Shown: positions 1 to 26,169 of the stretch, piece by piece | Position numbering within the stretch: the stretch's first letter is position 1 | How the letters are laid out: each line of letters starts with the position of its first letter | Source of the DNA: a virus | Lineage: Duplodnaviria > Caudoviricetes | Direction: 5' to 3' (one strand) | DNA length: 64,000 nucleotides | IMG/VR virus record: IMGVR_UViG_3300033120_000845 | Location: 1-64,000 of that record | Notes under the pieces: generated by a model | Seen by the model: only the letters and a program-made list of their open reading frames with translations | Databases searched by the model: none | What the model was told of the DNA's origin: nothing | Made by a program: the position numbers and the translations under genes

Positions 1-68
1 AATCAGTCATAAACCGATACTTTATGCTTCCTTAATCCGCCACATCGCCAAGTTGCGAACCGTTATAA
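1..68 (+). mobile_element. attC-like hairpin site S0 (right arm only, truncated by window start)
   Basis: CGCCAAGTTGCGAACC-GTTATAAG resembles the right arms of S2/S3; GTT at 62-64 overlaps the TAA stop of the 63..707 ORF. Confidence 0.7.
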
Positions 69-11367: not shown

Positions 11368-11649
11368 AATGTTAATTTTTAAAAGTTTTTGTACAATATT
11401 GTACTTTAGTCCCCTTTGTTCGTTTCGCTCGAATAAACTAAAAACTATTTAGCAAAGGGATTGTATTATTTTTCTTTGCCCGCATTCCACCGACAACAAA
11501 AAATAAAAATTAATCTTTTTTTATTTCTAATACTTCAATAATATAAGGGTTGTCCGTTGGGTTTAATTCGTCGTAATAGTTTTCCCAATCTTCTGGAGTA
11601 GCAAAGTCTTTTGCTACAACGTTACCGCAATAAGAATAAATAACTGTTA

Positions 11650-12730
11650 TCATCTTTTTAAATTTTAATTAAACAAAATTAACTATACAAATATAAAAAT
11701 AAAATTTAAATTACCAAAGAAAAAAGTAATAAATTTAAATTTTAACATTTGCAGTATTTTTAGAACGTTGCGCAATAACAACATAACAAAGATAAAAATT
11801 ATTTTTAATATACAAAACAGTTTTATTAAAAATTAGAAATTTAGAATTATTCTAAATAAGTAAAATAATTTGCATATTTAAAAAGTTTTTTGTATAATAA
11901 ACGCGCACGCCTGTACATATTATTAAAAGCCGCGAAAAAGATAAAGATCAGTTAAAAACCAATTACAAGCCACACAATAAAAGATAAAGTATATAAACAT
12001 ACTCAAGTATTAAAACTTTGAGAAAGTGCCACAAATGAAAAATTGAATTATGCAAATAAAAATTGTTAAATTTTTGTACCTGTAAAAAATAATTAATATA
12101 CAACTGATTAAGATAATTTATAATAAGAACAAATAAAAATAATAAGGTAGTCTTTAACTTTTTGCCGCGCATAAAAAATAAAACGATAAAAACAAATAAA
12201 ACCGTTAAAAGTTATCAACAAAAAAACATTTCTAAAATGAAAATCAAAAAACTGATTTTGGAAATTTGGAATTAGTCTAAATAAAAGTAGGCGGGTATGG
12301 AGTAAAAGCGTCCGAGATTTGGGGAGTCTGTTGTATTAGTACCAACTCACATATTCACGTATAGCTATTTTTTAAACAGGCACACATTCACGTATCATAC
12401 ATTTTTAAAAGTTCTCCCCACCAAATTTAAATCTTTTATATAATGACTTTTTCACTACTAACAATTTTATTTTTTAATCACTCCCTCTCAAAAACACATA
12501 CAATTATCCTTCTTGCATCCAATAACATTAATCTCCACACACTTTAAACCAATTAAGCTAAGAATTAGCCTTTATAAGACGTTTTTACTTAAAAGTGATA
12601 GTTAGATATATTTGATATAAAAATAATGGCTTAAAACGAGTGTAACGAGTAAGTAACGAACGAAGTGAGTAATCAATGAATTAAATTAAAAAAGAACATC
12701 CCCACACCAATTAAGATATGAGGATGGGGG
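11650..12730. other. long AT-rich non-coding region (candidate genome terminus, origin or early promoter region)
   Basis: No credible ORF; several TAnnTTTG boxes; short direct repeats (ATTCACGTAT x2; AACGA tandem). Confidence 0.45.
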
Positions 12731-12732
12731 GT

Positions 12733-14188
12733 CTAATTAATTGCAATGCCTTTATTAGGTTCAATTGTTAAATCGTATAAGTCTTCTTTTAAGATATTTA
12801 GATTACTTATTAAGTATTGTGTTCGGTGTTGTGCTCTGATTATTTCTTTTAATAAACCTTCTCCTGTTATTTCAGGGTCTATAATAAAATCTCTTGGATT
12901 TGGAACATCTTTTGAAATTATTTCTCTTAATGAGTGTAATTCATTCATTATTTGTCCTAATCTGTTGTTTATTTCTTCTTGTGTGTTTTTAATGTTTTCT
13001 AATGTCATTTTATTTCTGTTTTTAATTTATTTCCGCCAAATTTAAATAATAGTCTTCTACTTCAGACATTTGTCTTAAATATCTTTTTTCTAATTGTTGT
13101 ATTCGTCCCACCAAAGAAAAGGTATCCTTATCATCTTCTCTTGGAATGTTTAAATCATCTAAATATTGGTGGGCACATTCTACTGCTTCTTTATAGTAAT
13201 TATTCATTTTTATATTTCTGTTGTTTAATTCTTTTTCGCGATTTTAAATCTTAAATTATTTATAATGTATGTTTTATTTCCCCAACACTCTACTTCAATT
13301 GTAGCCACGCTTTCTATGAATTTAAATGTTTCATCAGATACATTTATTTCTATATATTCCTCAATAGGTTCATAGCTCGGTTGAAATAGATTTAGCCCTG
13401 TACTACAAAACTCGTTCATTATCTCTTCAATAATCCTTGTATCAGGAGGAGTTAAGCTAATAAACTTCCCTGTTTTTGTTATTAGTGTTTTCATATTTAA
13501 AATATTTCACATAATATTGGATGTCCTTTTTTATAAACTCTTTTTATTTTTGTTTCGGGCGGTAACTCTTTACATTCTGAAACGGGGAAACAACCATTCT
13601 CAGGATTATCTTTGTCAATGTAATAATCCTCATGTAATTGTTCTGCTTCAATTTCGGTGATTACATCCTCCGCATCTTCTCTCCAAAGAATTACATTTTT
13701 GTTTAATTCTGATTCTGGTAAATTGTTACAGAAATCTTTTAATTGTCTAAAATTCATTTTCTATCGTTATTAAATTTAACTATGTACTATACAAAATGGA
13801 TTACTACATGTCTCAGGGTGCTGTGTACAATGTGTGTTTCCTTCTTCTGTTTCTACGTCTTTTCTTTTCATTGTTCTATTGTTATTATATTTAATCTATT
13901 AGCTCTCTTTAAAAGTTTTTTAATTGTTCTATATGTTTGTTTCCAATTAAATCTTTTTCTTTCTAATTCTTCTGAGCACTCTTTTTTAAATTCTTTTTTG
14001 CCGCAATTTAAAAAGAAGTCTATATTGTCATAAAAACATTCTTCTGCTCCAATAGTTCCTGTGCTCACTTCAATATATCCAAAGTTAATAAGTTTCTTTT
14101 TATGCTTCTTTAAGTTTTCTTTTACGGAAATTGATAATGTTACATCGTCTAAATGTAAATTTACTTCTGTGTGTATTTTATCTTTCAT
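12733..14188 (-). other. run of five small hypothetical ORFs
   Basis: ORFs 12733-13008, 13022-13207, 13225-13494, 13497-13757, 13868-14188, co-oriented. Confidence 0.65.
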
Positions 14189-14508
14189 AATTTTTCTTTC
14201 ACTTCCTGTCTGTTTTCTTCAAACTCTTCTTTTTATTTAATTTTTTTAATTTCGCGCGAAAAAGAGTCTTTAACAAACAATCTTCTTTCTTCTTGGACAG
14301 CTAATTCTTCTTTCTGTTTCTTTAAGTTGTTTATTTTCTCCGTTTAATTCTTTTTCTTTATTATTTGCGCAATTATGCACTGAGAAAAGTAGTAAAATCA
14401 CTACTACTATGTAAATCCAATTTTTTTAATATTTTCTTTCATTATTTTATTTTAAAATTTCGAGAAATAAGTCACTTAATCCTTTTATTTATAAGGCTTG
14501 ACACTCTG

Positions 14509-14545
14509 TTGCGTATATATATATATAATAATTACCTGCAAGTGC
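14509..14545 (+). mobile_element. left junction of cassette 6 (half-site resembling one arm of terminal site SD)
   Basis: TTGCGTATAT(AT)n AATA-ATTACCTGCAAGTGC; the last 15 nt are complementary (11/15) to GCACCAACAGGTAAC at 15520-15534. Confidence 0.6.
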
Positions 14546-14561
14546 TACATTGGTGCTTTGA

Positions 14562-15467
14562 TTAAACATTTTCATTAGAAAAATTATTAAAAATTTCCCC
14601 ACCTTTTAAAAAAGAAAAAATATGAGCAATCACATCAACAGTCCACCCGTTTCCTATTGCTTTATATCTTTGCGTGTCGCTGAAACCAATTGTGTAATCA
14701 ATTGGTAGAGTTTGAAGTATTTCACATTCCTTTGGTGTTAATCTTCTTAATATACCGTTGGATTCTACAATCTGCCCTTCTCTACTATTACTATTATTTT
14801 TGTAATATGTTGCAAACAAACATTTAGATTTATTAGCAACTAAATCAAACCCTTGTTTTTCCCTTACTCGTTCCACAGCACGTTCTGTTAAATAATACTT
14901 TTCATCAACATCGGTTTCAATTATATTTCTAAAATCCAAACCTAAATCAATGGGTTGTTTTACATTCGGTATATTAGTCCAATACAATCTATTACGTCTT
15001 TGATGGCTTAATAATGCTGAATTTATCTTTATAGGTTTTACCCCCAATGCTTCTGAGATTAAATCCTCCCATTCTTTTTTCATTACAACATTTTCAAGTA
15101 AAAAGTATTTTGGTTTAGTTTCATTTAAAACTCTTACATATTCCCAAAATAAACCACTCTTACCTTCAAATCCAACCTTATCACCCATTTCTTCACGATA
15201 TAAACCCATTGTACTAAATGATTGACAAGGTGAGCCACCAATAAGTAAATCAATTTTTGGTAATTCACTTGCTTTTACGTCCACTACACTTCCTATATGT
15301 TTTGTATTTGGGTAATTCCTTTTACACATCTGAATTGCATAACCATCAATTTCAGAAGCGAAATAGTTTTCAATACCAATATCTGCTCGTTCAAGTGCAA
15401 TTTGTCCGCAACTAATACCATCAAATAATGATAATACGTTTATTTTTTCTTTTTTGCCTACGCTCAT
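14562..15467 (-). CDS. dcm: DNA (cytosine-5) methyltransferase, cassette 6
   Basis: Motif I LSLFDGISCG, motif IV GGSPCQ, motif VI ENV, motif VIII QRRNRLYW, motif X IGNGWTV. Confidence 0.92.
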   Translation of the reverse strand: MSVGKKEKINVLSLFDGISCGQIALERADIGIENYFASEIDGYAIQMCKRNYPNTKHIGSVVDVKASELPKIDLLIGGSPCQSFSTMGLYREEMGDKVGFEGKSGLFWEYVRVLNETKPKYFLLENVVMKKEWEDLISEALGVKPIKINSALLSHQRRNRLYWTNIPNVKQPIDLGLDFRNIIETDVDEKYYLTERAVERVREKQGFDLVANKSKCLFATYYKNNSNSREGQIVESNGILRRLTPKECEILQTLPIDYTIGFSDTQRYKAIGNGWTVDVIAHIFSFLKGGEIFNNFSNENV

Positions 15468-15527
15468 TTTTAATAATTTTTTGTTTAGTATTTCAATTTA
15501 AGTTTTCCGTTAATTAACCGCACCAAC

Positions 15528-15657
15528 AGGTAACACGTGCTATAAGCAATAGCGGGTTCTGTGCTATCCGAAAGTTTCTGCTGTTTATTATCGTTTGTCA
15601 TAATTTGAAAGTTCTTTGTTATTAATCCGCTACTGCTCATAGCACCATACGTTATCT
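15528..15657 (+). mobile_element. attC-like hairpin site S6
   Basis: AGGTAAC-ac-GTGCTATAAGCAATAGCGG-loop-CCGCTACTGCTCATAGCAC-catac-GTTATCT; GTTA overlaps the stop of ORF 15652..15846. Confidence 0.85.
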
Positions 15658-15846
15658 TACACAGCTACAATTACATTTAGGATGGTTATACATTCTAAGA
15701 GAGGGTTTTGATTTTTCTCTCAGTTCTTTATTCTCTGTTTCTAATTCTTTTACGCGCGAATTTTGTTTTTCTAACTCATATAGTGAATAGATGAATAGTG
15801 AAAAACCTAATACTGCTAAAATTACTAATGGTTTATTTGTGTTCAT
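15652..15846 (-). CDS. small membrane-anchored coiled-coil protein
   Basis: N-terminal TM helix followed by a coiled coil. Confidence 0.6.
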   Translation of the reverse strand: MNTNKPLVILAVLGFSLFIYSLYELEKQNSRVKELETENKELREKSKPSLRMYNHPKCNCSCVR

Positions 15847-16108
15847 AGTACTCTTCTAATATTTTATATTGTTCTTCTGTTAAATTAAATATCTTTCTAA
15901 ATCTTTCTTTTCCGCCGATTTCAATAGGTAAGTAAGAATTTCCACCACGTAAAGAATAGCCTAAAATTAAATCTTTCTTGAATGAATCTCCTAATTCAAA
16001 TATCTTTTTGTCATTCACCCCGATAAAGTGGTTTTCATTTGTCAGAATTGTAAATCTATGACCTCTTTGCCATAAATCGAGCAGATACGTTAAACAATTT
16101 ACTTTCAT
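15833..16108 (-). CDS. hypothetical protein
   Basis: 91-aa ORF overlapping the neighbouring start. Confidence 0.6.
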   Translation of the reverse strand: MKVNCLTYLLDLWQRGHRFTILTNENHFIGVNDKKIFELGDSFKKDLILGYSLRGGNSYLPIEIGGKERFRKIFNLTEEQYKILEEYYEHK

Positions 16109-16392
16109 AAAAATCTTGTTTCTGATTCATTTCCTACAATTTCTACAGATATTGTCTCTCTACCTTTAGGTGTAATAAACTCACTCTTCAATAAATTCTC
16201 TTCAATTTTCTCTTTTGCTTTATCAAAACTTTCCGCTAAACAAAAATATTCTCCAATTTTACTTTTTACTTTGTATAAGTTCATAATTATAATTTATTTT
16301 TGACAAATTTACAAAATATTTTTCACATAAAAAAGAAAAACAGCAAAAATTTTCTACAAAGTTTCACTAAAAACAAAAAAAAAGAGAACCAA

Positions 16393-16884
16393 TTAGGCTC
16401 TCTTAGTGATATTGAATTCAAAATCTTTTGGTGCTTTTGTTGTCCCGCCGAAATAAGGTCTTAAAATAATTTTCGGAAACCATAATTTCCATCCACTCAT
16501 TCTAAGTAGATAAAGACTGTTATTATTTACTTTAACGAAATAATTATGCTTACTTATTTTAATTTCAAATACGTTTTCTTCATCCTGATTTACAAAACAA
16601 AGTGGAGTTATTGTTCTTTCTCCATTCATATATCTGATAACTAAGATTTCTGTTTTATTTTCTTCTTCGCACCACCTCCAACCGATTCTCACACTTGATT
16701 TATGGTGATGATAACTGTCAGAGAACCCAATGATTTTATTAGTGTCTTTCTGTTTATCAATTTCATAACTGAAATCGCCGATTAATTTAAAAGTCCCACA
16801 TAATTTCCGCGAAAAAGTAAAAAACGGAAAGAAATTAAAATTACAATAATGACTATTCTTTTCTATTAAAAACCGCATACACAC
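16393..16884 (-). CDS. hypothetical protein (beta-rich)
   Basis: 163-aa ORF. Confidence 0.65.
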   Translation of the reverse strand: MCMRFLIEKNSHYCNFNFFPFFTFSRKLCGTFKLIGDFSYEIDKQKDTNKIIGFSDSYHHHKSSVRIGWRWCEEENKTEILVIRYMNGERTITPLCFVNQDEENVFEIKISKHNYFVKVNNNSLYLLRMSGWKLWFPKIILRPYFGGTTKAPKDFEFNITKRA

Positions 16885-17028
16885 CTTTAATTAAAAAGAA
16901 AATAAAAATCGCCGAAAAAGAATATAAAAAATAATAAGATTCCTCATACTCCTGAAAAAAAGAAGCTATAAAAATACCAATCATAGTCAGTAGTGCCCAA
17001 AATAAGTCACTAAATAAAAATTTATTCA

Positions 17029-17316
17029 TTATAAATGTGTTTTAAATGTTGTATTAAACTGTTTATTATAATTTTCTATTTGAAATTTTATTTCCGCGCA
17101 AGTTTCAAAATTAGACCACAGCTCAAAGAAACTAAGGAGAATTAAAAGATTGTTTATATCATATAACCTAAGAATATTAATATAGTCATCTCTGTCAGAA
17201 TATCGGATAATTTCATTGAATTCTATATCTTCGGGAAATACTCCATCAGGGATAAAAGCTATATGTAATTTCCAAAACTCTTTTAATTCTTCAACGGTAA
17301 GTTTCTTTGTAATCAT
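17029..17316 (-). CDS. hypothetical protein
   Basis: 95-aa ORF. Confidence 0.6.
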   Translation of the reverse strand: MITKKLTVEELKEFWKLHIAFIPDGVFPEDIEFNEIIRYSDRDDYINILRLYDINNLLILLSFFELWSNFETCAEIKFQIENYNKQFNTTFKTHL

Positions 17317-17424
17317 TCCCTATAAATAAGATTCTTTATTTTAATAATATTGTAAAATCATTCTTGCGCTTGTCTATTGAATTTTGGAAGGCTTTAGTTA
17401 TGAACAGGACTTTAGTCAACCAAT

Positions 17425-17649
17425 ATGAAACAACATTTTTACAAATTAAAAGACATAGTTGACATAAGCGTTTTTATATTAACTATGTGGCTATCTTTTT
17501 TAATTTTTGTTGGCTATACACTAAAAGAATACACTTGTGTTACCCTTTCATTTTATTGGACAATAATTCTTTTTTATATACTTCCTTTTCTTGTAATAAT
17601 TCTTTCTTTTTTACAAAAAACGATATCAATATCACAAAAAAGACAATAA
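17425..17649 (+). CDS. small 2-TM membrane protein, probably in a truncated cassette
   Basis: Plus-strand hydrophobic ORF in a minus-strand region, left of site SA. Confidence 0.45.
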   Translation: MKQHFYKLKDIVDISVFILTMWLSFLIFVGYTLKEYTCVTLSFYWTIILFYILPFLVIILSFLQKTISISQKRQ

Positions 17650-17777
17650 CAAAAGATAATGATAATGCACATCGTAATTCAGGAACAGATAGAGCCTTAT
17701 TTAACTTTAAATAGGTTTCATATTCATACATTGAAATTCAATATTTTTTCTAACAGTTAACGTTGAGCCAAGCTTAC

Positions 17778-17911
17778 CGCTAACGTTTTGTGGCTTTATG
17801 AAGTTGCGTGCCTCCAAAACAGCCGTTAATAAATTTTTTCTTTTCTTCCCGCACGCACGGAAAATTCCAAACACACCCTAAACAAGCAATTTCATAAAAC
17901 CTCTGTTAGCA
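17778..17911 (-). mobile_element. attC-like hairpin site SA (inverted relative to S0-S6)
   Basis: CGCTAAC-gttttgt-GGCTTTATGAAGTTGC-loop-GCAATTTCATAAAACC-tct-GTTAGCA; its reverse complement has the S1-S5 architecture. Confidence 0.85.
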
Positions 17912-17970
17912 GTAGTATTTTCTTTCAAACTTAGTAAATTTATTTTATCTTCGTCAAAAGATATTTAATT

Positions 17971-18267
17971 ATGATACATAAAGATAATATAAGCACCGAA
18001 CATTATATAAACTCAATAGCTCCCGACTACTACATTGAATTACCTTTCAGACCGGAAGAAAAAATAGAAGAGAAAGATGTTACTTGTGTATTCTCTATTA
18101 TTACAGAACCTTTAAAATTAAGATGTGTAGGCATTGATTATTTCGATATGATTGATAACGATGTTTTATTAGATAAACGTTACGGAGAATATTTGCCAAG
18201 TCATATATACGTTTTTAAAGGAAGACCTTTTGATATTGAAGCTGAAAGAAACAGACTAATTATCTAA
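17971..18267 (+). CDS. hypothetical protein, cassette 7
   Basis: 98-aa ORF between SA and SB. Confidence 0.7.
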   Translation: MIHKDNISTEHYINSIAPDYYIELPFRPEEKIEEKDVTCVFSIITEPLKLRCVGIDYFDMIDNDVLLDKRYGEYLPSHIYVFKGRPFDIEAERNRLII

Positions 18268-18453
18268 AAGATTTTTATAGAACTTATCGTTTGATGTATA
18301 ACTCTCAACACCTCTTAATTGAACTGTTGCTGATTTTCCGCAATCTTTTAAATACTCACAAAATTCTTCAAGGTCTTTATACTCTCTACTTTGAAAGTTT
18401 TCAAGTATTTGAGATGCTAATTTAGAAAAGTATTTTTCCTTATTATTGTCCAT
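18256..18453 (-). CDS. hypothetical protein, cassette 7 (convergent)
   Basis: 65-aa ORF convergent with 17971..18267. Confidence 0.55.
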   Translation of the reverse strand: MDNNKEKYFSKLASQILENFQSREYKDLEEFCEYLKDCGKSATVQLRGVESYTSNDKFYKNLLDN

Positions 18454-18487
18454 AATATTTATTTACAGCAGTTTATCGTAATATTAC

Positions 18488-18620
18488 TGCTAACGTCCCG
18501 CCAGCTTTGTGAAGGTGCAATTTTCACTCACTAACGATGGATTAATAATTAATTTTTATTCTTGCACCAAAACTTTAAATTAAACCTTTAGTTGCACTTT
18601 CACAAAACTGCCTGTTGTGC
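18488..18620 (-). mobile_element. attC-like hairpin site SB
   Basis: TGCTAAC-gtcccgc-CAGCTTTGTGAAGGTGCAA-loop-TTGCACTTTCACAAAACTG-cct-GTTGTGC. Confidence 0.85.
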
Positions 18621-18628
18621 GTTCGTTG

Positions 18629-18925
18629 TTATTCTTCTTTCGCATTTCTTATCAAATACGCTCCTGCAATTGCCATTAAACCAAAATATAAAGGTGTCGC
18701 AGATGTGTATCCCGCACCTCCACCATCATTATAAAAAGCCCCACCTGACCATTCAGAGCTTAGATTACTCATTTGTATTATAGCACCACAATCTTTTATT
18801 AACAGATTTATTGTAAATAGTAAAACCGATAATACAGGTGGAAATAGTAAAATGTAACCAATTGTTTTTTGAATATTTTTCATAATATTTAGTTTTAAAT
18901 TATCTGAGTTGTTTTTAATTTTCAC
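18629..18925 (-). CDS. 2-TM membrane protein, cassette 8
   Basis: Hydrophobic segments GYILLFPPVLSVLLFTI and LYFGLMAIAGAYLI. Confidence 0.7.
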   Translation of the reverse strand: MKIKNNSDNLKLNIMKNIQKTIGYILLFPPVLSVLLFTINLLIKDCGAIIQMSNLSSEWSGGAFYNDGGGAGYTSATPLYFGLMAIAGAYLIRNAKEE

Positions 18926-18969
18926 TAAGTTCTGAAAATTTTTCTTACGTTTACATTTTAATTTTCAAT

Positions 18970-19425
18970 ATGGAAGATTTAATAAAACTAACAGAAAAAA
19001 TACATCCAACAGCTACGAGATTTTTCATTAATCATTTTTTTGTTGCATTATTTTGGTTTATTCCGTTCATAATGTTTAAAAAGGAATTTTTAGATTACTC
19101 ATTTCACATACAAATGATATTAGTTTTCTGCATAAGTTTAATTTGGTATCTTGTTAGCTGTGTTATAAATGTAATATTATTGAATATATTCAATCTTGTT
19201 GATAAATACGGATACTACTTATTAGAGCTTACTACAGTTTTTACAATATTATTTTTATGCGCTTTAATAAATGTTGGATACTATTATTCATTTACAATCA
19301 CTAAATTTCTAAAGCTTTCTTTTATACCTATTGTAATTACGCCCTTTACAATATTCCTAGTAATCGAGCTGTTGTTTTTGATATTAAAAGGAATATTGAA
19401 AGTACAAAAAAAGCAAAATAACTAA
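18970..19425 (+). CDS. 4-TM membrane protein, cassette 8
   Basis: 151 aa with four hydrophobic helices. Confidence 0.7.
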   Translation: MEDLIKLTEKIHPTATRFFINHFFVALFWFIPFIMFKKEFLDYSFHIQMILVFCISLIWYLVSCVINVILLNIFNLVDKYGYYLLELTTVFTILFLCALINVGYYYSFTITKFLKLSFIPIVITPFTIFLVIELLFLILKGILKVQKKQNN

Positions 19426-19564
19426 GTGTACTCAAACTCTCTATTACGGTTAATTTCTTGTTTCCGTCTTTCAAATATGTATATAGTCTAATATGAACAG
19501 GTATTGATGTGATTAACCAAACTATAAAGTATATTGACAACACCGTTTCTAATTTCATTTTCAC
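19346..19564 (-). CDS. small membrane protein, cassette 8 (convergent)
   Basis: 72-aa hydrophobic ORF overlapping the 3' end of 18970..19425. Confidence 0.4.
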   Translation of the reverse strand: MKMKLETVLSIYFIVWLITSIPVHIRLYTYLKDGNKKLTVIESLSTLSYFAFFVLSIFLLISKTTARLLGIL

Positions 19565-19598
19565 GTCTTGTTTTTAGGTAAAGTTGACGTACAATGAC

Positions 19599-19732
19599 GC
19601 ACAACGTCCATAGGCTTTGTGTCAGGTGGCGCGAACCAACACAGACCTCTCTGATTAATAATTATTTTTTAATTGCGCCAAAACTTTCCAAATATTCCTT
19701 TAACCGCCACTTGCACAAAACCTTTGTTGTAC
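19599..19732 (-). mobile_element. attC-like hairpin site SC
   Basis: GCACAAC-gtccat-AGGCTTTGTGTCAGGTGGCG-loop-CGCCACTTGCACAAAACCT-tt-GTTGTAC. Confidence 0.85.
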
Positions 19733-19805
19733 GACGGCTTTTATTATTTCCCGCCAAGTTATTAAAACTTTTTCTTACTTTTGGTTTTCACTTTAAATTT
19801 TTAAT

Positions 19806-20159
19806 ATGGCTGAAATAAACACAACAAAAAATGATGAAATATCAGGTTTGAAAAATAAATATAATCCTGATAAACATTTACCAACACCATTTCCTGAACA
19901 ATTTAAATATGAGAATTGCATTTGTGTATTTTACTCAGTTATTTTAAATGAAAAGTATAAAACTTTAAAAAGAGTATATCATAATGCTAAATTTTATAAA
20001 TCATTTACAGAAAACGATATGGTGGGTTTTGATTATAAAGGCTTTTCTTTGAACGGAGTTTACATATTAACTTCTACTAAAGAAGAAAGTGTTTCAATCT
20101 TAGAAGATATAAAATCTAATACAGAAAATTATAAAGAAAATTATTTAGACTGTATTTAA
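19806..20159 (+). CDS. hypothetical protein, cassette 9
   Basis: 117-aa ORF between SC and SD. Confidence 0.7.
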   Translation: MAEINTTKNDEISGLKNKYNPDKHLPTPFPEQFKYENCICVFYSVILNEKYKTLKRVYHNAKFYKSFTENDMVGFDYKGFSLNGVYILTSTKEESVSILEDIKSNTENYKENYLDCI

Positions 20160-20362
20160 ATTTTCGGTGGTTTTTCAAAAGCTGCTCCGTTAAAATAACT
20201 TGCTCTTTTTAGCTCTTCTTTAAGAATTTTTAAAAATACCTCTATTTCTGAATACCGAAGTTGGTTTAAATGAGAGTAAGTTACGCTTAGTGCTTTACTA
20301 ACTATTTCTTTACTCTCTTTTGTTAAGTGTTTGTATTTTTTACTCATAGTTTTATTAAACAA
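20156..20362 (-). CDS. hypothetical protein, cassette 9 (convergent)
   Basis: 68-aa ORF whose stop overlaps the stop of 19806..20159. Confidence 0.5.
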   Translation of the reverse strand: MFNKTMSKKYKHLTKESKEIVSKALSVTYSHLNQLRYSEIEVFLKILKEELKRASYFNGAAFEKPPKI

Positions 20363-20393
20363 CTTATTTAACGTTCTGTTGAGTTAAGCTGTT

Positions 20394-20490
20394 GTACAAC
20401 TTGTAAATATACGCATTGCGCTTTTTAAATATATCTCGGTTTTATTGAATATATTTACTTTTGTGCATTGCGTATATTTTTTTGTTAATA
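20394..20490. mobile_element. terminal hairpin site SD (distinct class; candidate attI-like primary site)
   Basis: GTACAAC-ttgt-AAATATACGCATTGCGC-loop-GTGCATTGCGTATATTT-tttt-GTTAATA; symmetric spacers; 7 nt from the groES stop. Confidence 0.7.
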
Positions 20491-20497
20491 ATTAATT

Positions 20498-20746
20498 TTA
20501 AGGTTTTGGTGCTTCGGCAATTACATAAAGTTCATTTAAAACTAAATATTTTTTACCGTTATATTCAATTTCTTTCCCGCGCTCCTCATCATAAAAAATA
20601 TACATCCCTACTTTATAAACTTCTGTTTTTTCACCAATAGAAATAACTTCAGAAACCATATTCTTTTGATTAGGCATAAAATTCATAGAGTTTGGATTCT
20701 TTTCAAATCTTACAACGACTTCATTCTGCTTAAATTTTAAATCCAT
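20498..20746 (-). CDS. groES: co-chaperonin GroES-like
   Basis: EVISIG...KVGMYIFY...GKEIEYNGKKYLVLNELYVIA; adjacent to GroEL. Confidence 0.8.
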   Translation of the reverse strand: MDLKFKQNEVVVRFEKNPNSMNFMPNQKNMVSEVISIGEKTEVYKVGMYIFYDEERGKEIEYNGKKYLVLNELYVIAEAPKP

Positions 20747-20747
20747 A

Positions 20748-22238
20748 TTACACTACACTTATAATTCTTGTATTAATAATTAATTTTGCCACAGACACTG
20801 CATTTTCTAATGCCACTCTCAAAGATTTTTTAGCATCAATAATTCCTGACTTTCTATAATTTACAACTTTTTTAGTTTTAATATCATAAAGTTGTCCATA
20901 TCTGTTAATTTGACGAATCGCTTTTTCAGCTTCTACATCACCATTAGTTAAAATCTGCCTGAAAGGTTCACAAATAGTGTCTAATAAAATTTGATATCCT
21001 AAATCCTTTTTATTTTTACCACTTAATTTTTTAGCAATCGACAGCATAGTTGCTCCACCTCCTGCTACAAACCCTTCTTCAACAGCACACTCTAAAGCCC
21101 TCTTAGCATCATCAAAACGGTCAAACTTTTCTTTTCTTTCCGAGTCTGTTTTTCCTCCAACATAAATTGTAGCAACACCATTCTCTAAATTAGCAATTCG
21201 CTTTTCAATAAAATCTGTTTTTTCTTCAACTTGCTTCAAAGAACTCAAATGTTCTAAACTTTTTTCATTTAATTCTCTCTGAATAATGTAAGTGCGGTCT
21301 TTTGAAACTATCACTTTATCTGCTGTCCCTGCGTGAATTACTTTTGAAACTCCCGGAACAAAAACCTCCGCACCTGTATAAAAAGCAATGTCTTGTAAAA
21401 GCTGTTTTCGTTCTTGTCCAAACTCAGGGGCTTTAATAACACAAATATGTCTTCCTCGCCTGTGAATATTTACAATTGCATTTAAAGCGTCCTCAGAAAT
21501 GTCTTCAACAATTAATAATAAGGGGCTTGAAGAGTTGGTGATAATTCCGTCAACTAAATTAGAATTAGAAAGACCCAGACTATTTTCAAAAATTACAATC
21601 TCTACATCTGTTTCATCAAAAGTTAAATTGCTTTCTTTAGTTGTTAGAAATGGCGAAACATATCCTTTCTCGATGTTCATACCTTTAATAACTTTCATTG
21701 TAGTTGTTGGAGAATCTGCTTCAATTACATCCACAATATTTGCATTATCAAAGGCTTCAATAAGCATTTCAGAAATTTCTTTATCACCATTGGAAGAAAT
21801 GTAAGCAATATCTTTTAAATTGTCTTTATCTGCATCCTCTGCTAAATTGTTAAGTTCTGAAATAACATCCGTCATTGCTCTATCAACACCTTCAATTATT
21901 TCTCGTGGAGTTGATAAATCTTTAGCCTCTAAACTCTTTTTAACCAAAGCCTGCGCAAAAACTAATGAAGAAGTTGTATTATCCCCCGCCTCCGTAACAG
22001 TTTTTACCGCCACTTGTTTAGCAAGATTAGCTCCCATCTGCTTTTCTTTCCTAATTACTTCGTCTTCATCATTGAAAAATATTGACTTACAAACAGAAAC
22101 ACCATCTTTAGTTGCAGAAACAGTTCCTAAATGCCCTTCAATCATAGCAATTTTTCCTTCCCCACCTAAAGTAAGTTTTGTAGCATCGCAAGCCACATTA
22201 AATCCAAAAATTAAATTACTATTATCTAATGTCGTCAT
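20748..22238 (-). CDS. groEL: chaperonin GroEL (phage-encoded)
   Basis: TLGGEG, TKDGVSV, AGDNTTSS, KAPEFG, GFVAGGG, GIID..K motifs. Confidence 0.95.
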   Translation of the reverse strand: MTTLDNSNLIFGFNVACDATKLTLGGEGKIAMIEGHLGTVSATKDGVSVCKSIFFNDEDEVIRKEKQMGANLAKQVAVKTVTEAGDNTTSSLVFAQALVKKSLEAKDLSTPREIIEGVDRAMTDVISELNNLAEDADKDNLKDIAYISSNGDKEISEMLIEAFDNANIVDVIEADSPTTTMKVIKGMNIEKGYVSPFLTTKESNLTFDETDVEIVIFENSLGLSNSNLVDGIITNSSSPLLLIVEDISEDALNAIVNIHRRGRHICVIKAPEFGQERKQLLQDIAFYTGAEVFVPGVSKVIHAGTADKVIVSKDRTYIIQRELNEKSLEHLSSLKQVEEKTDFIEKRIANLENGVATIYVGGKTDSERKEKFDRFDDAKRALECAVEEGFVAGGGATMLSIAKKLSGKNKKDLGYQILLDTICEPFRQILTNGDVEAEKAIRQINRYGQLYDIKTKKVVNYRKSGIIDAKKSLRVALENAVSVAKLIINTRIISVV

Positions 22239-22392
22239 CTTCTACTTCTATGTGTAATACGTCTCTTTCCGTTTGTTGTTGTTTTTTAATAAACTTTGTT
22301 TTGTCTTTTTCCCAATCGCCCGAAAGAGAAGGAAATATGAGATACAACTCCTCTGTTTCGAGGAGCGTATCGTATAATCTTTTATAATCCAT
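22222..22392 (-). CDS. small hypothetical protein (56 aa)
   Basis: Manually translated MDYKRLYDTLLETEELYLIFPSLSGDWEKDKTKFIKKQQQTERDVLHIEVEDDDIR; fills the gap and overlaps both neighbours. Confidence 0.65.
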   Translation of the reverse strand: MDYKRLYDTLLETEELYLIFPSLSGDWEKDKTKFIKKQQQTERDVLHIEVEDDDIR

Positions 22393-22591
22393 TCGATTTT
22401 AAATCTTTTAAAATGTTTTGATATAAAACACCATCAACTTTGTGAAAAGGAACATTTAAATCTACATAATTATGAATCTTATCTTTTATAACTTTCAAAG
22501 AAAGTCTGTTATCTAAAGTTTCAAATCCTACGAACGATGCCCCTGTTTCTCGTCTAATGATGTTATGCCAAAGGTTGTGAAACTTGTTCAT
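22382..22591 (-). CDS. hypothetical protein
   Basis: 69-aa ORF overlapping neighbours. Confidence 0.6.
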   Translation of the reverse strand: MNKFHNLWHNIIRRETGASFVGFETLDNRLSLKVIKDKIHNYVDLNVPFHKVDGVLYQNILKDLKSNGL

Positions 22592-22931
22592 CTTTTCTAA
22601 TTTCGTGTTTTTTAATTGCTTTTCCTGCTTTCACTGCTTCCATAAACCAATGTAATAAGTTGAATTTCATATCCATTGCAGATGCTCCCATAATTGTCAT
22701 TGCAGGTTTTGGTTCTTGGGAGAAGAATGTTTTTGCATCATACATTTTCTGTTCTGTTTTACCTTTACCTGTGGCAATAGTTTCTTCATTAAGCATCACT
22801 GTTTTGGTTTCTTGATTCTCAACCATTGTTAAGACATCTAAGAGTGCTGTTAATAATTCTCCGGGAATTTCTACAATACTTCCCTGTTCAAATGTATAGT
22901 CCGCTAAGTTAATTTTTGTTTCTTCGTTCAT
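22563..22931 (-). CDS. hypothetical protein
   Basis: 122-aa ORF. Confidence 0.7.
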   Translation of the reverse strand: MNEETKINLADYTFEQGSIVEIPGELLTALLDVLTMVENQETKTVMLNEETIATGKGKTEQKMYDAKTFFSQEPKPAMTIMGASAMDMKFNLLHWFMEAVKAGKAIKKHEIRKDEQVSQPLA

Positions 22932-23008
22932 TTATTTTTGTTTAAAACCCGCCTCAAAAGACAATTAGTCTCCGCAGGGAAATGCCCTACGCTCGGCGGG
23001 ATATGTTG

Positions 23009-23884
23009 TTAATTATTATATTCTAATACTTCTATTCCTAAACTTTTTATAAATTCTTCATGTTTTTCTCTTGTATCTAAATAAGTCCCATCTTGTAAAT
23101 GAAAAATTCTTTTTTCAACGTTTAATATTAAATGGTTATGTAAATTCTTATGGTCTCTAATATTTAAGATAAATACATCTTTCAAATAATCTTCGTTATA
23201 ATTCCAATGATGTAATTCAAACTCTCTATGTAAATTTAGGTAATATTTACTCCTTAGACCTTTATATACCGTACTATTTTTCCAAGGTTTATTTTTGTCC
23301 CACAATTTTTGTTGCTCTTTATAAACAAGTCTGTAGTACTTATCTCTATGCCTTTGACGCTCTTTTTCTAAACCTTCAGGAGTAGATGTATTTATATCTG
23401 TCCTTTCTTTAACATCCGTTTTGGTACAAGATTTACATTTCCCTAAATATCCATCTCCCATTCCACTATGTTTATAAAACTCTTCATAAGGTTTTGTAAC
23501 ATTGCATTTAAAACAAGTTTTTCCTATTTTATAAAAAGTCTCAAAAATATCTTCAGTAAGTAATCCTGAATTACATGGATTCGGGTCGTGATAAAGCCTT
23601 CCATTTTGGTATATGCAAATATGGTTTGCCCCTCTATTTGTTTTTCCCGTTACTGTATAAAAAGAGTCATCGTACCTATGCCCTTCAATGGTTTGCCAAA
23701 TCCATCCTTTATTATAAAGCCACTCTTGTAACTGTACATTCCAATCGTTTTCTAAGTATTTCTCCTGAATTTGAATTACATCTTCAGGAGAATCTAAGTT
23801 TAAGAAACAAGCTATTACTGTTGGGAAACAATTACCTAAAACTTCAGGTGGGTTATGTATCCTTGTTTGATATAACTTTTTCAT
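23009..23884 (-). CDS. two-domain protein: papain-like N-terminal domain plus Zn-finger/HNH-like nuclease domain
   Basis: GNCF..IAC / HICIY / HDPNP, then KTCFKC..FYKH....DG...KCKSC and ELHHWNY..HKNLH. Confidence 0.6.
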   Translation of the reverse strand: MKKLYQTRIHNPPEVLGNCFPTVIACFLNLDSPEDVIQIQEKYLENDWNVQLQEWLYNKGWIWQTIEGHRYDDSFYTVTGKTNRGANHICIYQNGRLYHDPNPCNSGLLTEDIFETFYKIGKTCFKCNVTKPYEEFYKHSGMGDGYLGKCKSCTKTDVKERTDINTSTPEGLEKERQRHRDKYYRLVYKEQQKLWDKNKPWKNSTVYKGLRSKYYLNLHREFELHHWNYNEDYLKDVFILNIRDHKNLHNHLILNVEKRIFHLQDGTYLDTREKHEEFIKSLGIEVLEYNN

Positions 23885-23893
23885 ATCTAACGT

Positions 23894-24643
23894 TTAAGCG
23901 AACGGAAGGTCGTCATGTTTTTCTGACAAATTAGCTACAGGCTCAAAAGCATCATTTGGCGACATTGTAGGAATTTGTTTTCCGCTCGGTTTTGGATTTC
24001 TTGGCGTTGTACCTACGTGAGGGTCTTCAGCTGTTGTGTTATTTTCTCCTTGAACCCATTTTAATCTTTCTGTATGTTCTTTTAACACTGCCAATAGATA
24101 ATCATCTTTAGCTTCCATTGAGGCGGCTGATGGCTTCTTTTTACCTAAAGCATCTTCTTTCCAAGTAATTGCAGGAATATCTCCTTCCACGAAATTACCA
24201 TCTTTGTAATACGCATTTGTCAATCCCTTTAATTTCTCACCATTAACAGAAATAGAAACTCCAATTTGAGAGTACTTACTTCCTTCAGGGATAAAATTAT
24301 AAGCTCTTACCGTAAGGTTATCCCCTTTATTGAGTTTTGGTAATACTTTAATTAGACTTTCTGCGTAATTGTCCACATTTCCCCTTTGGTCTGCAATATC
24401 TATAGGTACATAATAAACATCCTCTCCGTTTTTAATATTCATAGAAATTTGCTTTCCAAAACTGCCATCATAAATAGAAACAGATTCTAAAACTCCTGAA
24501 ACACCTTCTTTATAATATTTTCTATAAGAAACGTTACCTTTACTTGATGTATGTTTCTCAAACCCTTGCTTTTCTTCTTTACTGTAAATGAAAAACAAGC
24601 CACTACCGAACTCCAGTTGGAGATAATTTTTGTTAATTGCCAT
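23894..24643 (-). CDS. ssb: single-stranded DNA-binding protein (putative)
   Basis: Acidic C-terminal tail DDLPF after a disordered linker; replication-module context. Confidence 0.65.
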   Translation of the reverse strand: MAINKNYLQLEFGSGLFFIYSKEEKQGFEKHTSSKGNVSYRKYYKEGVSGVLESVSIYDGSFGKQISMNIKNGEDVYYVPIDIADQRGNVDNYAESLIKVLPKLNKGDNLTVRAYNFIPEGSKYSQIGVSISVNGEKLKGLTNAYYKDGNFVEGDIPAITWKEDALGKKKPSAASMEAKDDYLLAVLKEHTERLKWVQGENNTTAEDPHVGTTPRNPKPSGKQIPTMSPNDAFEPVANLSEKHDDLPFA

Positions 24644-24666
24644 TGTTTGTATTTAATTATTTATAT

Positions 24667-25170
24667 TTATTCTTCATTACTTGGAAATTCTAAAATTAAA
24701 TCCTTTTCTTTCTTTTTAAAAAGTCTTTTAAATTTCCATTTTAAACTTTCTAATTTTTCTTCCCACCAACTTTGGTCTGCTAAAAATAATTGACCGTAAA
24801 TATCGTCTGTAGTTTCCATAACATCAAAAGATAATCCTGCTTTTGTATATACAGTTGTAATACCTTCTGTTTCTGAATCAATCGCAAAAGAAAAATCTTG
24901 ACGTTCTAAAATTACTTCATTGTGGATGTATTCATATTCATCTTCTTTAAGTTTTACATATCCATCAGGCGATACTTCATCTTCTGTTTCTTCTTCCTCT
25001 AATTCGGGAGGCTCTACTCCAAGATTCCTGTACCACTGAGCCGAATGAGGCGGGGGGTTATCTTCATCAATCTCTTGTTGTTTCTTATTAACTTTCTTTA
25101 ACCTTTCTTGACCTTTCTCATTAATCTCTGTTGATACGGTGGTTAAAAATAAGATTTTAGGTTTACTCAT
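24667..25170 (-). CDS. hypothetical acidic protein
   Basis: 167-aa ORF directly downstream of a promoter. Confidence 0.7.
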   Translation of the reverse strand: MSKPKILFLTTVSTEINEKGQERLKKVNKKQQEIDEDNPPPHSAQWYRNLGVEPPELEEEETEDEVSPDGYVKLKEDEYEYIHNEVILERQDFSFAIDSETEGITTVYTKAGLSFDVMETTDDIYGQLFLADQSWWEEKLESLKWKFKRLFKKKEKDLILEFPSNEE

Positions 25171-25193
25171 TTTTTATTATTTTATTTCTTATG

Positions 25194-25225
25194 CAAATAT
25201 ACAACTTTATTTTGAATTGTGCAAG
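25194..25225 (-). promoter_or_regulatory. Bacteroidota sigma70-type promoter
   Basis: CTTGCACA-N16-TATATTTG on the minus strand. Confidence 0.75.
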
Positions 25226-25236
25226 TTTATTTTTGA

Positions 25237-26169
25237 TTATTTATTTTCAATTAAAAGCTCTAATTCTGCTAATGCATTCCAAGCAACATGATAGCAATGC
25301 GGTAACATACTTTCCAAGTCAATACCTTTTTGTATTCTATGTCTTAAACCTGCATCTGCATAATCTTTGCTCCCTCCTTTTACACGTTTAAAATTCAGGT
25401 AGTCTTTATCTGTTTCTTTATACTTTTCATGCCCGTATTCAGAACATCTTACAATTGCTTCTAATGCTTTCGGGAACTGTTTAAATAATAAAGATAATTG
25501 AGGTTTTAATATATTGAATTTCTGACCCTCAGTTTCTTTAAACTTATTTTCATCACATAAGTTATTATTGAGGATTGATTCTTTAGTTGGATGACAACAA
25601 ACACATCTTGAGTCGTCACACATTGTAAAATTACAATGCATTGGTTTTCCTTGTAATAGAGCTCCTTTTAAATCTTGTTTTGGCGCAATTGGACTCTCTG
25701 TTTTTAACACTTCCATTTTTTGCAATTTCAACCTTTCACTATCCTCAATTCTCTTTTTGCGCGAACAGTAATTTTCATCAACAAATGGATTAGAATGAAC
25801 AGGTTTTGTATTTAAAGTACTTTCTGTTTTTTTATTTGGTCTCCAAGAGAAAGTGTAAATTTTAGGTTCAACTATTTCATCTTCTTCACACATTTCAAAA
25901 CTTACAGGTGCTTCTATACTATATGTAAATCTACTTTTATCTTCACAATCTTCAGCTTTCAATCTTGTAGCATTAACTCTATTCCGTTTTTCGTCCGCAA
26001 AAAAAGATTCTAAACAGTCTTTATGATTAATCAAAAAATAAACAAGGTCAAACATCATCTGTCTGTTACTATTATTAATTTTCAATATCTCTGTATGAAG
26101 TGCTACATCGTTAATTGAATTAAGATTGTTTTCTCTTAAGTATTTTTTGTGATGTTCTTTTAGATTCAT
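25237..26169 (-). CDS. dATP/dGTP diphosphohydrolase domain protein (DUF5664-type) with long N-terminal extension
   Basis: GQKFNILKPQLSLL..KALEAIVRCSEYGHEKY..NF..YADAGLRH..DLESMLPHCYHVAWNAL. Confidence 0.8.
   Translation of the reverse strand: MNLKEHHKKYLRENNLNSINDVALHTEILKINNSNRQMMFDLVYFLINHKDCLESFFADEKRNRVNATRLKAEDCEDKSRFTYSIEAPVSFEMCEEDEIVEPKIYTFSWRPNKKTESTLNTKPVHSNPFVDENYCSRKKRIEDSERLKLQKMEVLKTESPIAPKQDLKGALLQGKPMHCNFTMCDDSRCVCCHPTKESILNNNLCDENKFKETEGQKFNILKPQLSLLFKQFPKALEAIVRCSEYGHEKYKETDKDYLNFKRVKGGSKDYADAGLRHRIQKGIDLESMLPHCYHVAWNALAELELLIENK

Follow-up and report, generated by a model that had tools for sequence, protein, structure and literature searches.

Organisation of the locus

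The hairpin considered here, SD, is located in a phage genome between a group of small accessory cassettes and the chaperonin genes groES and groEL. The genome is available as an IMG/VR record of 132,413 bp, and the window, that is, the whole stretch of DNA analysed, corresponds to the first 64 kb of that record. Its G+C content is around 30% and its minus strand is rich in small genes. Comparison of the region 14000-26000 with the phage collection by megablast gave zero matches. The features on which the analysis is centred are compiled in Table 1.

Table 1. Features around SD and the motif preceding the solo Dcm cassette (window positions)
Feature	Position	Strand	Description
TTGCGTATAT and AT run	14509-14533	+	just upstream of the initial ATT of the solo Dcm cassette
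Accessory block (3178 bp)	17317-20494		hairpin-less segment at one end (ORF 17425-17649); SA, SB and SC, each with a segment; hairpin SD at the other end
Cassette 3 end (AAGCTGTTGTAC) and AAC of SD	20386-20400	+	exchange junction
SD	20398-20486	-	89-nt hairpin from AAC to GTT; orientation as for SA, SB and SC
SD cassette-side arm (AAATATACGCA, T, TGC)	20405-20419		11-bp stem, 1x1 mismatch at 20416, 3-5 further pairs
SD inner AT stem	20426-20457		perfect 9 bp (20426-20434 with 20449-20457), 14-nt loop
SD groES-side arm (GCA, T, TGCGTATATTT)	20465-20479		
Gap of 8 nt (AATAATTA)	20487-20494		from the end of SD to the right-hand edge of the block
groES	20498-20746	-	backbone gene ending 11 nt from SD; Pfam Cpn10, E 3e-5; PHROGs groES
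groEL	20748-22238		Pfam Cpn60, E 6e-41; PHROGs groEL

The only tyrosine recombinase gene of the phage is found at genome 101470-102297 and encodes a Xer-like protein of 275 aa (Phage_integrase/SAM-like). It contains the single PF00589 match of the genome (101521-101997) and lies 81 kb from SD.

Beside SD, on the minus strand, a 63-aa open reading frame (20156-20347) has no match in Pfam or PHROGs and shows weak structural resemblance to HTH regulators (TM about 0.5). An early promoter pattern, TTGCAY-N17-TAnnTTTG followed by CA, was noticed at window positions 2865, 25224, 26608, 30856 and 32431 (-) and at genome 129262; the copy at 2865 points into array 1 from the far end of that array. SD contains no good copy of the pattern, the nearest being on the plus strand, antisense to groES and with the wrong spacing. 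A sigma-70 promoter scan is uninformative for a phage of Bacteroidota type.

Sequence and structure of SD

The initial annotation described SD as a hairpin bounded by AAC and GTT, with spacers of 4 nt on both sides and arms of the TGCGTATAT type, without the GTTTTG/CAAAGC core, and reading on the minus strand TGCGTATATTTACAA followed by the GTT next to the first cassette. All of this is confirmed by direct reading. At the left end, AAC (20398-20400) is followed by TTGT and the arm AAATATACGCA (20405-20415), and at the right end the arm TGCGTATATTT (20469-20479) is followed by TTTT and GTT (20484-20486). The arms stretch to 15 nt with a single T.T mismatch (20416/20468). The inner AT stem takes the place of the loop of 60-90 nt that in ordinary sites holds the start of the cassette gene, and the only start of an open reading frame within SD is antisense to groES. 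As DNA, SD folds at -15.8 and -15.9 kcal/mol (z -4.25 and -4.76), with 0 of 200 shuffled sequences folding as well, and the RNA of its minus strand folds at -26.9 kcal/mol (z -6.5).

The last nucleotides of cassette 3 together with the AAC of SD pair at 13 of 15 positions, plus 2 G.T, with GTTGTACGACGGCTT at 19726-19740; read on the minus strand, the sequence after GTT is GTACAACAGCTT, and it pairs with the flank in front of SC; the first cassette begins directly after GTT. With respect to attC-type boxes (RYYYAAC/GTTRRRY), AAC and GTT are present and the backbone side reads ATTAAC, and on this side the extended consensus of the other sites (GCTAAC/GTTAGCRGTA) is absent.

Outside AAC and GTT, the flanks of many sites, for instance those at window 1584, 17905 and 18480 and at genome 102775 and 103542, share a consensus that reads TACYGCT before AAC and AGCRGTA after GTT. 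Because of this shared consensus, the apparent pairing of cassette ends partly reflects a conserved extended box and not cassette-specific sequence. Close to SD, the minus strand of 20370-20393 reads AACAG, 10 nt and CAGAACGTT, which corresponds to both ends of the hairpin model with the entire hairpin missing (9.1 bits); this may be a collapsed site or a product of chance.

SD and the family of cassette hairpins

Fourteen hairpin sites of the phage genome were aligned in one orientation, and a covariance model (R1) was built from the alignment. All 14 start with AACA and end with CGTT, and 12 of the 13 predicted pairs covary. The model recovers all known sites at 60-98 bits, together with dozens more in other phages and in MAG contigs. 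SD, on the other hand, aligns to it end to end on the minus strand with 8.5 bits (E 0.058 when searched alone, in 146 bases) and is absent from the sites found at E<=10 in a search of 36 kb; short family members from other phages with TGCGTATAT arms reach 39-45 bits. In the alignment of SD to R1 most of the loop is deleted, 3 nt are deleted before GTT and CGTT becomes AGTT. By profile, SD is no member of the R1 family.

Several traits of the family are found in SD: the AAC and GTT bounds with an A after AAC (AACA, minus strand), the stem layout (some 11 bp, then a second stem beyond a 1x1 mismatch that falls on the second A of GCAAT) and the break of the neighbouring DNA at AAC/GTT between relatives, which is observed for SB and SC as well. 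The geometry of its stem matches that of the site 103421-103544. The stem of SD consists of 11 bp, an A.A mismatch (T.T on the plus strand) and 3-5 bp, and that of the site 103421-103544 of 11 bp, an A.C mismatch and 6 bp; after AACA, SD reads on its minus strand five A and ATATACGCAATGC, and the other site CTGC and ATATACGCAATG. On the minus strand the left arm of SD is in the register of this subtype, that is, AACA, 5 nt and ATATACGCAATG.

Other traits are missing from SD. It ends AAGTT, without the C before the closing GTT that is present not only in the training sites but also in 21 of 22 family sites with TGCGTATAT arms, the exception being L088 with AGTT. In all 22 of the AAC/GTT-bounded family sites with these arms the distance of the 9-mers is 5 nt to AAC and 8-9 nt to GTT; in SD the spacing is 6/6 (a 4x4 internal loop), so that its GTT-side spacer is 2-3 nt shorter than in ordinary sites and the asymmetry of 3-4 extra unpaired nucleotides on that side is lost. 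No gene starts in its loop. The asymmetry of the spacers is invariant among the 14 training sites as well. As it lacks both this feature and CGTT, SD may not take part in the reaction of the ordinary sites, or may be dead. The locus L014, with a spacing of 7/7, is an unrelated long palindrome.

The 9-mer TGCGTATAT has only five copies in the genome, at 14510, 20407 and 20469 (the last two being the arms of SD), 103429 and 103525. The copies at 103429 and 103525 are the arms of the site 103421-103544, an ordinary family member of 124 nt (85 bits) situated between two other sites of the recombinase-side array (array 3), and its loop contains the start codon of a Mom-family gene (genome 103492). 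Two scans of IMG/VR for the arm pair yielded 86 loci, many of which are family hairpins with the same arms. According to R1, TGCGTATAT-armed hairpins are internal in the arrays of L010, L034, L037, L056, L070, L074, L078, L081, L085 and L087, and also in the MAG contigs L103 and L097, which makes at least 12 other arrays.

The proposals that hairpins of this type mark array starts and that they form a second class are not supported by these observations, since such arms occupy internal sites both in array 3 and in 12 or more arrays of other phages and MAGs, and since arms, 11-bp stem and position of the mismatch recur in the ordinary internal site 103421-103544. For the arms, this is the outcome that the initial annotation had named as refuting its reading. 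Within the hairpin family the TGCGTATAT arms are an ordinary variant and no marker of array starts. As the same arms occur elsewhere in the family, neither they nor the absence of the GTTTTG core distinguish SD; it is set apart by its symmetric spacers, its AGTT end and its gene-less, self-paired loop. Three scans with arm patterns (86 IMG/VR loci and 1 metagenome locus) revealed no second family site with symmetric spacers, and the exact arm and loop sequence of SD had 0 matches in IMG/VR. L095, the only metagenome match of the arm pattern of SD, is unrelated DNA with tandem palindromic boxes and no hairpin site.

Heads of the arrays

SD occupies the head of array 2, in the position that attI has in integrons. 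Arrays 3 and 4 start with a shared non-hairpin module of 27 bp (genome 102300-102326 and 131308-131334, 96% identical), and GTT comes 21-26 nt further on, its adjoining flank pairing with that of the first hairpin. The module has no fold, and one of its copies abuts the recombinase gene. Near these two heads TGCGTATAT is absent even when one mismatch is allowed outside coding sequence, and SD and the module have no sequence similarity in matching orientation. The resemblance of the groES-side flank of SD to the module (array 3, p 0.045; array 4, p 0.22) is in the wrong orientation and was discarded as a chance effect of AT-rich sequence.

The start of array 1 had been predicted to carry the motif of SD. 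The record starts inside a hairpin (window 1-63) and the head of array 1 is therefore outside it. A methyltransferase cassette is present twice, at 61-548 and at genome 131926-132413, with 93% identity, behind different hairpins and with the break exactly at GTT; the hairpin region of the second copy is at the other end of the contig (genome 131843-131929). As far as it is testable, the prediction fails: the array with the 93% copy of the first cassette of array 1 is headed by the 27-bp non-hairpin module and has no TGCGTATAT within 4 kb. Of four examinable array starts, one carries the motif intact and one a 10-mer remnant. In other phages, a partial walk towards the array heads by means of flank pairing encountered no SD-like head site; it led mostly to further ordinary hairpins overlooked by R1.

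Metagenome variants and relatives of the locus

Contigs from four metagenome runs were compared with the region 17000-21500, and the parts interpreted here are those under the cover of X1-X3 contigs; X4-X10 contain no more than small portions of the stretch. In a wastewater contig (X1, record 7) 20398-20619 is present without mismatch, with one T fewer in a T run, so that SD and groES are kept; the other 109 nt are unlike the window, and the divergence begins exactly at the AAC of SD. A second X1 contig spans the same place of SD without the 1-nt T deletion. The breakpoints of X1 and X2 contigs, at 18491, 19601 and 20398, are the plus-strand AAC of SB, SC and SD, and SC remains joined to its own segment in the metagenome contigs.

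The crossover is thus at or near the plus-strand AAC, that is, the GTT in the polarity of the array. Since the breaks are at the AAC of SB, SC and SD, the cassette unit consists of a hairpin and the segment that follows it on the plus strand; with the unit fixed in this way, SD is an extra, gene-less site at the head of array 2. The identity of the X1 contig to SD and groES, together with its break at AAC, indicates that a cassette exchange occurred at the SD junction: DNA was exchanged exactly at the cassette-side AAC/GTT of SD while SD stayed linked to groES. Taken singly, the X1 breakpoint resembles any mosaic boundary, and it is only its coincidence with AAC that argues for site-specific exchange. 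One X1 contig runs from 19783 back to 18414 across 21 letters of other sequence, so that parts of cassettes are reordered in the wastewater variant.

In a bioreactor metagenome, a contig of 51.9 kb (X3, record 25) contains 17029-17316 and then 20495-21500, with nothing between them. The stop codon of groES, 3 nt and the ATG of the gene 17029-17316 constitute an exact empty site for the entire array 2. Because the whole block of 3178 bp is missing from X3, SD included, SD is no docking site of the backbone and travels with the array; it is accessory DNA, outside the conserved backbone. X3 also diverges to the left of 17029, which makes the gene 17029-17316 a module in its own right, with a break at either end.

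A search of IMG/VR with GroEL as single protein found no relatives. GroEL relatives at 66% identity are P0002-P0004, and L091-L094 were retrieved by an alignment query. L091, with a GroEL 53% identical, carries two ordinary hairpins and one segment between groEL and groES (11562-13033). The site at the head of this array, beside groEL, is an ordinary family hairpin, contrary to the expectation that array heads carry the class of SD, and the groES of L091 has a canonical terminator downstream and no SD. In the same relative, the ATG of groES is 3 nt past the GTT of the second hairpin, and a promoter (TTGTGC-N17-TATCTTTG) ends 8 nt before the first hairpin.

Interpretation of SD and alternative explanations

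The explanation that best accounts for these data, with a probability of roughly 60%, is that SD is the outermost groES-side site of array 2 and, with arms of the ATATACGCAAT/TGCGTATAT subtype, a stripped-down homologue of the ordinary cassette hairpins. It is not a separate class of entry sites that marks array starts. To cut out the first cassette or bring in another, the single Xer-type tyrosine recombinase of the phage, or one of the host, would use SD as partner hairpin, so that SD would work like an attC at the head of an integrase-less attC cluster and not like a dedicated attI. The peculiarities of SD could reflect the lack of a gene that it would have to preserve, or else decay.

In a related explanation, SD would be a hairpin purpose-built as an anchor, analogous to attI but folded; the spacer asymmetry and the gene-bearing loop would have been lost so that the cassette-side GTT alone is active and SD itself is never excised. 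This seems unlikely, and a somewhat lower standing is given to SD as a dead relic of a former cassette hairpin, with the adjacent variation being older or due to homologous exchange. The deletion of the loop, the 3-nt deletion in the spacer, the C-to-A change at the CGTT end and the loss of family-typical features would suit a relic, as would the arm remnant of the solo cassette, decayed even further. However, arms that are perfect over 11 bp and a loop that forms a perfect stem of 9 bp look maintained, and two phage variants found together share an identical SD and differ past its AAC. Improbable too, and marginally more so, is the attI-like primary site of the initial annotation, a distinct class that marks array starts and is the preferred entry of cassettes. 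What stands of that proposal is the attI position of SD in array 2, with the first cassette and the exchange junction at the cassette-side GTT; in addition, SD is gene-less, has symmetric spacers and fails R1, and a 10-mer of one arm is found 12 nt before the solo cassette. Several findings speak against a dedicated entry site of this class: arrays 3 and 4 have the 27-bp non-hairpin module and GTT without the motif, the array beside groEL in L091 is headed by an ordinary hairpin, arms of this type also occupy internal sites, in this genome as in 12 or more further arrays, the 86 IMG/VR loci and the metagenome locus contain no second family site with symmetric spacers, X3 lacks both SD and the block, which speaks against a backbone platform, and SD does not adjoin the only recombinase gene, 81 kb away.

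Two further explanations do not involve recombination at SD. The hairpin could act in RNA, at the 3' end of the groEL-groES transcript, as attenuator, terminator or stabiliser, with AAC and GTT being incidental. It is 11 nt after the stop codon of groES, its RNA fold has a z of -6.5 and L091 has a canonical terminator in the same place; but the stem is AT-rich and followed by UUUACAAGUUGU, with no U run, there are 0 terminator-like sites in 17000-22500 and no Rfam match at E<=1, and in X3 groES is followed by the next gene after 3 nt, the hairpin being absent. As this explanation also leaves the arm homology, the AAC/GTT bounds and the breakpoint at AAC unaccounted for, it is considered highly improbable. 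Still less credit is due to a role of the arms as two operator boxes (ACGCA-T-TGCGT), bound by a protein such as the small HTH-like one encoded 51 nt away. Tandem palindromic boxes of the same 9-mers do precede genes in L017 (8945-9013) and L095 (900-977), and the 63-aa neighbour weakly resembles HTH structures (TM about 0.5). Nevertheless, the inner halves of the boxes are degenerate in SD (6/9 and 5/9) and the outer, mutually pairing halves are perfect over 11 nt and accompanied by an inner stem, a pattern that points to selection on the hairpin; X1 keeps SD and replaces the segment with the 63-aa gene, and the motif differs from the LexA-like boxes of Bacteroidota.

Comparison with known systems

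In its position at the head of an array, with the first cassette right after GTT, SD is similar to the attI of integrons (e.g. attI1). attI is a double-stranded, non-hairpin site that adjoins intI. SD differs from it in being a hairpin, 81 kb from the recombinase gene, absent from other heads and within a mobile block. The 27-bp module of arrays 3 and 4 takes the place before the first cassette that SD has in array 2. Stem-loops that recur between small accessory genes are also known from the promoter-stem-loop (PeSL) cassettes of T4-type phages, which are found in plastic regions of these lytic phages and shuffle at the repeats; this shuffling is attributed to homologous recombination between the promoter repeats. 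Unlike PeSL, the junctions of this phage are base-exact at AAC/GTT and a recombinase is encoded.

SD also resembles the first attC of an integrase-less attC cluster (CALIN) and the attC of sedentary integrons, which are likewise folded sites bounded by AAC and GTT with exchange at the GTT end; there too the unit consists of a gene segment and its own hairpin, and the head site is gene-less. Clusters of attC have been reported in phage genomes (PMC9892861). There are nonetheless differences from attC systems: most cassette genes of the phage have the opposite reading direction and begin within the hairpin, as the Mom gene does at genome 103492, its only recombinase is the Xer-like protein of 275 aa, and SD lacks the spacer asymmetry that the family-type sites have. 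Insertion of cassettes outside att sites has also been described (bioRxiv 10.1101/2022.09.11.507474). It would explain why a solo cassette such as 14533-15653 is flanked by a single hairpin and why arrays occupy different places in the backbone, but it leaves no head hairpin, and array 2 and the array of L091 have one.

For the narrower claim of a second hairpin class the outcome is mostly corrective. The metagenome variants provide natural evidence at base resolution for the mobility of the phage cassette system. If SD were a purpose-built anchor, it would be a landing pad for a distant recombinase that travels with the array to new positions of the backbone. If gene-less hairpins as well as linear attI-like modules head arrays, there would be two ways of anchoring them; that by hairpin would require only hairpin-by-hairpin recombination and would explain arrays far from the recombinase gene.

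Additional observations

Boxes of the form TATACGCA(A)TTGCGTATA precede genes in L017, an unrelated temperate phage of Bacteroidota, 1 kb upstream of the integrase, and three such boxes precede a broken SRAP-like gene in the metagenome contig L095. They look like operators of some regulator. Their assignment to Bacteroidota LexA-like operators was rejected, given that the published motifs are GGA-N5-TCC or CTAA-N5-TTAG (PMC8565304).

The flank after the last hairpin, SA (AGCGGTAAGCTT, minus strand), is complementary at 10 of 12 positions to 17293-17304, within the backbone gene, next to an inverted repeat of 17 nt with 119 nt between its arms (17138-17290). The complementarity in 17290-17304 may be due to chance or to a cryptic site.

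The motif before the solo Dcm cassette (cassette 6 of the initial annotation) had been regarded as a decayed copy of SD with an AT expansion. The motif and the AT run are certainly there: the 10-mer TTGCGTATAT has 3 copies in 132 kb, with 0.27-0.30 expected per strand, and one of them is 12 nt before the ATT of the cassette. Local alignment gives marginal support to homology with SD (p about 0.03) and places it on the other strand than the earlier reading did, and the region has no partner arm and no fold (z +0.66); it may be the remnant of one arm of a TGCGTATAT-type site. The imperfect palindrome reported in front of it, at 14481-14496, is not significant. After the ATT, the sequence ACCTG...TTGGTGC pairs with the flank before the AAC at 15532.
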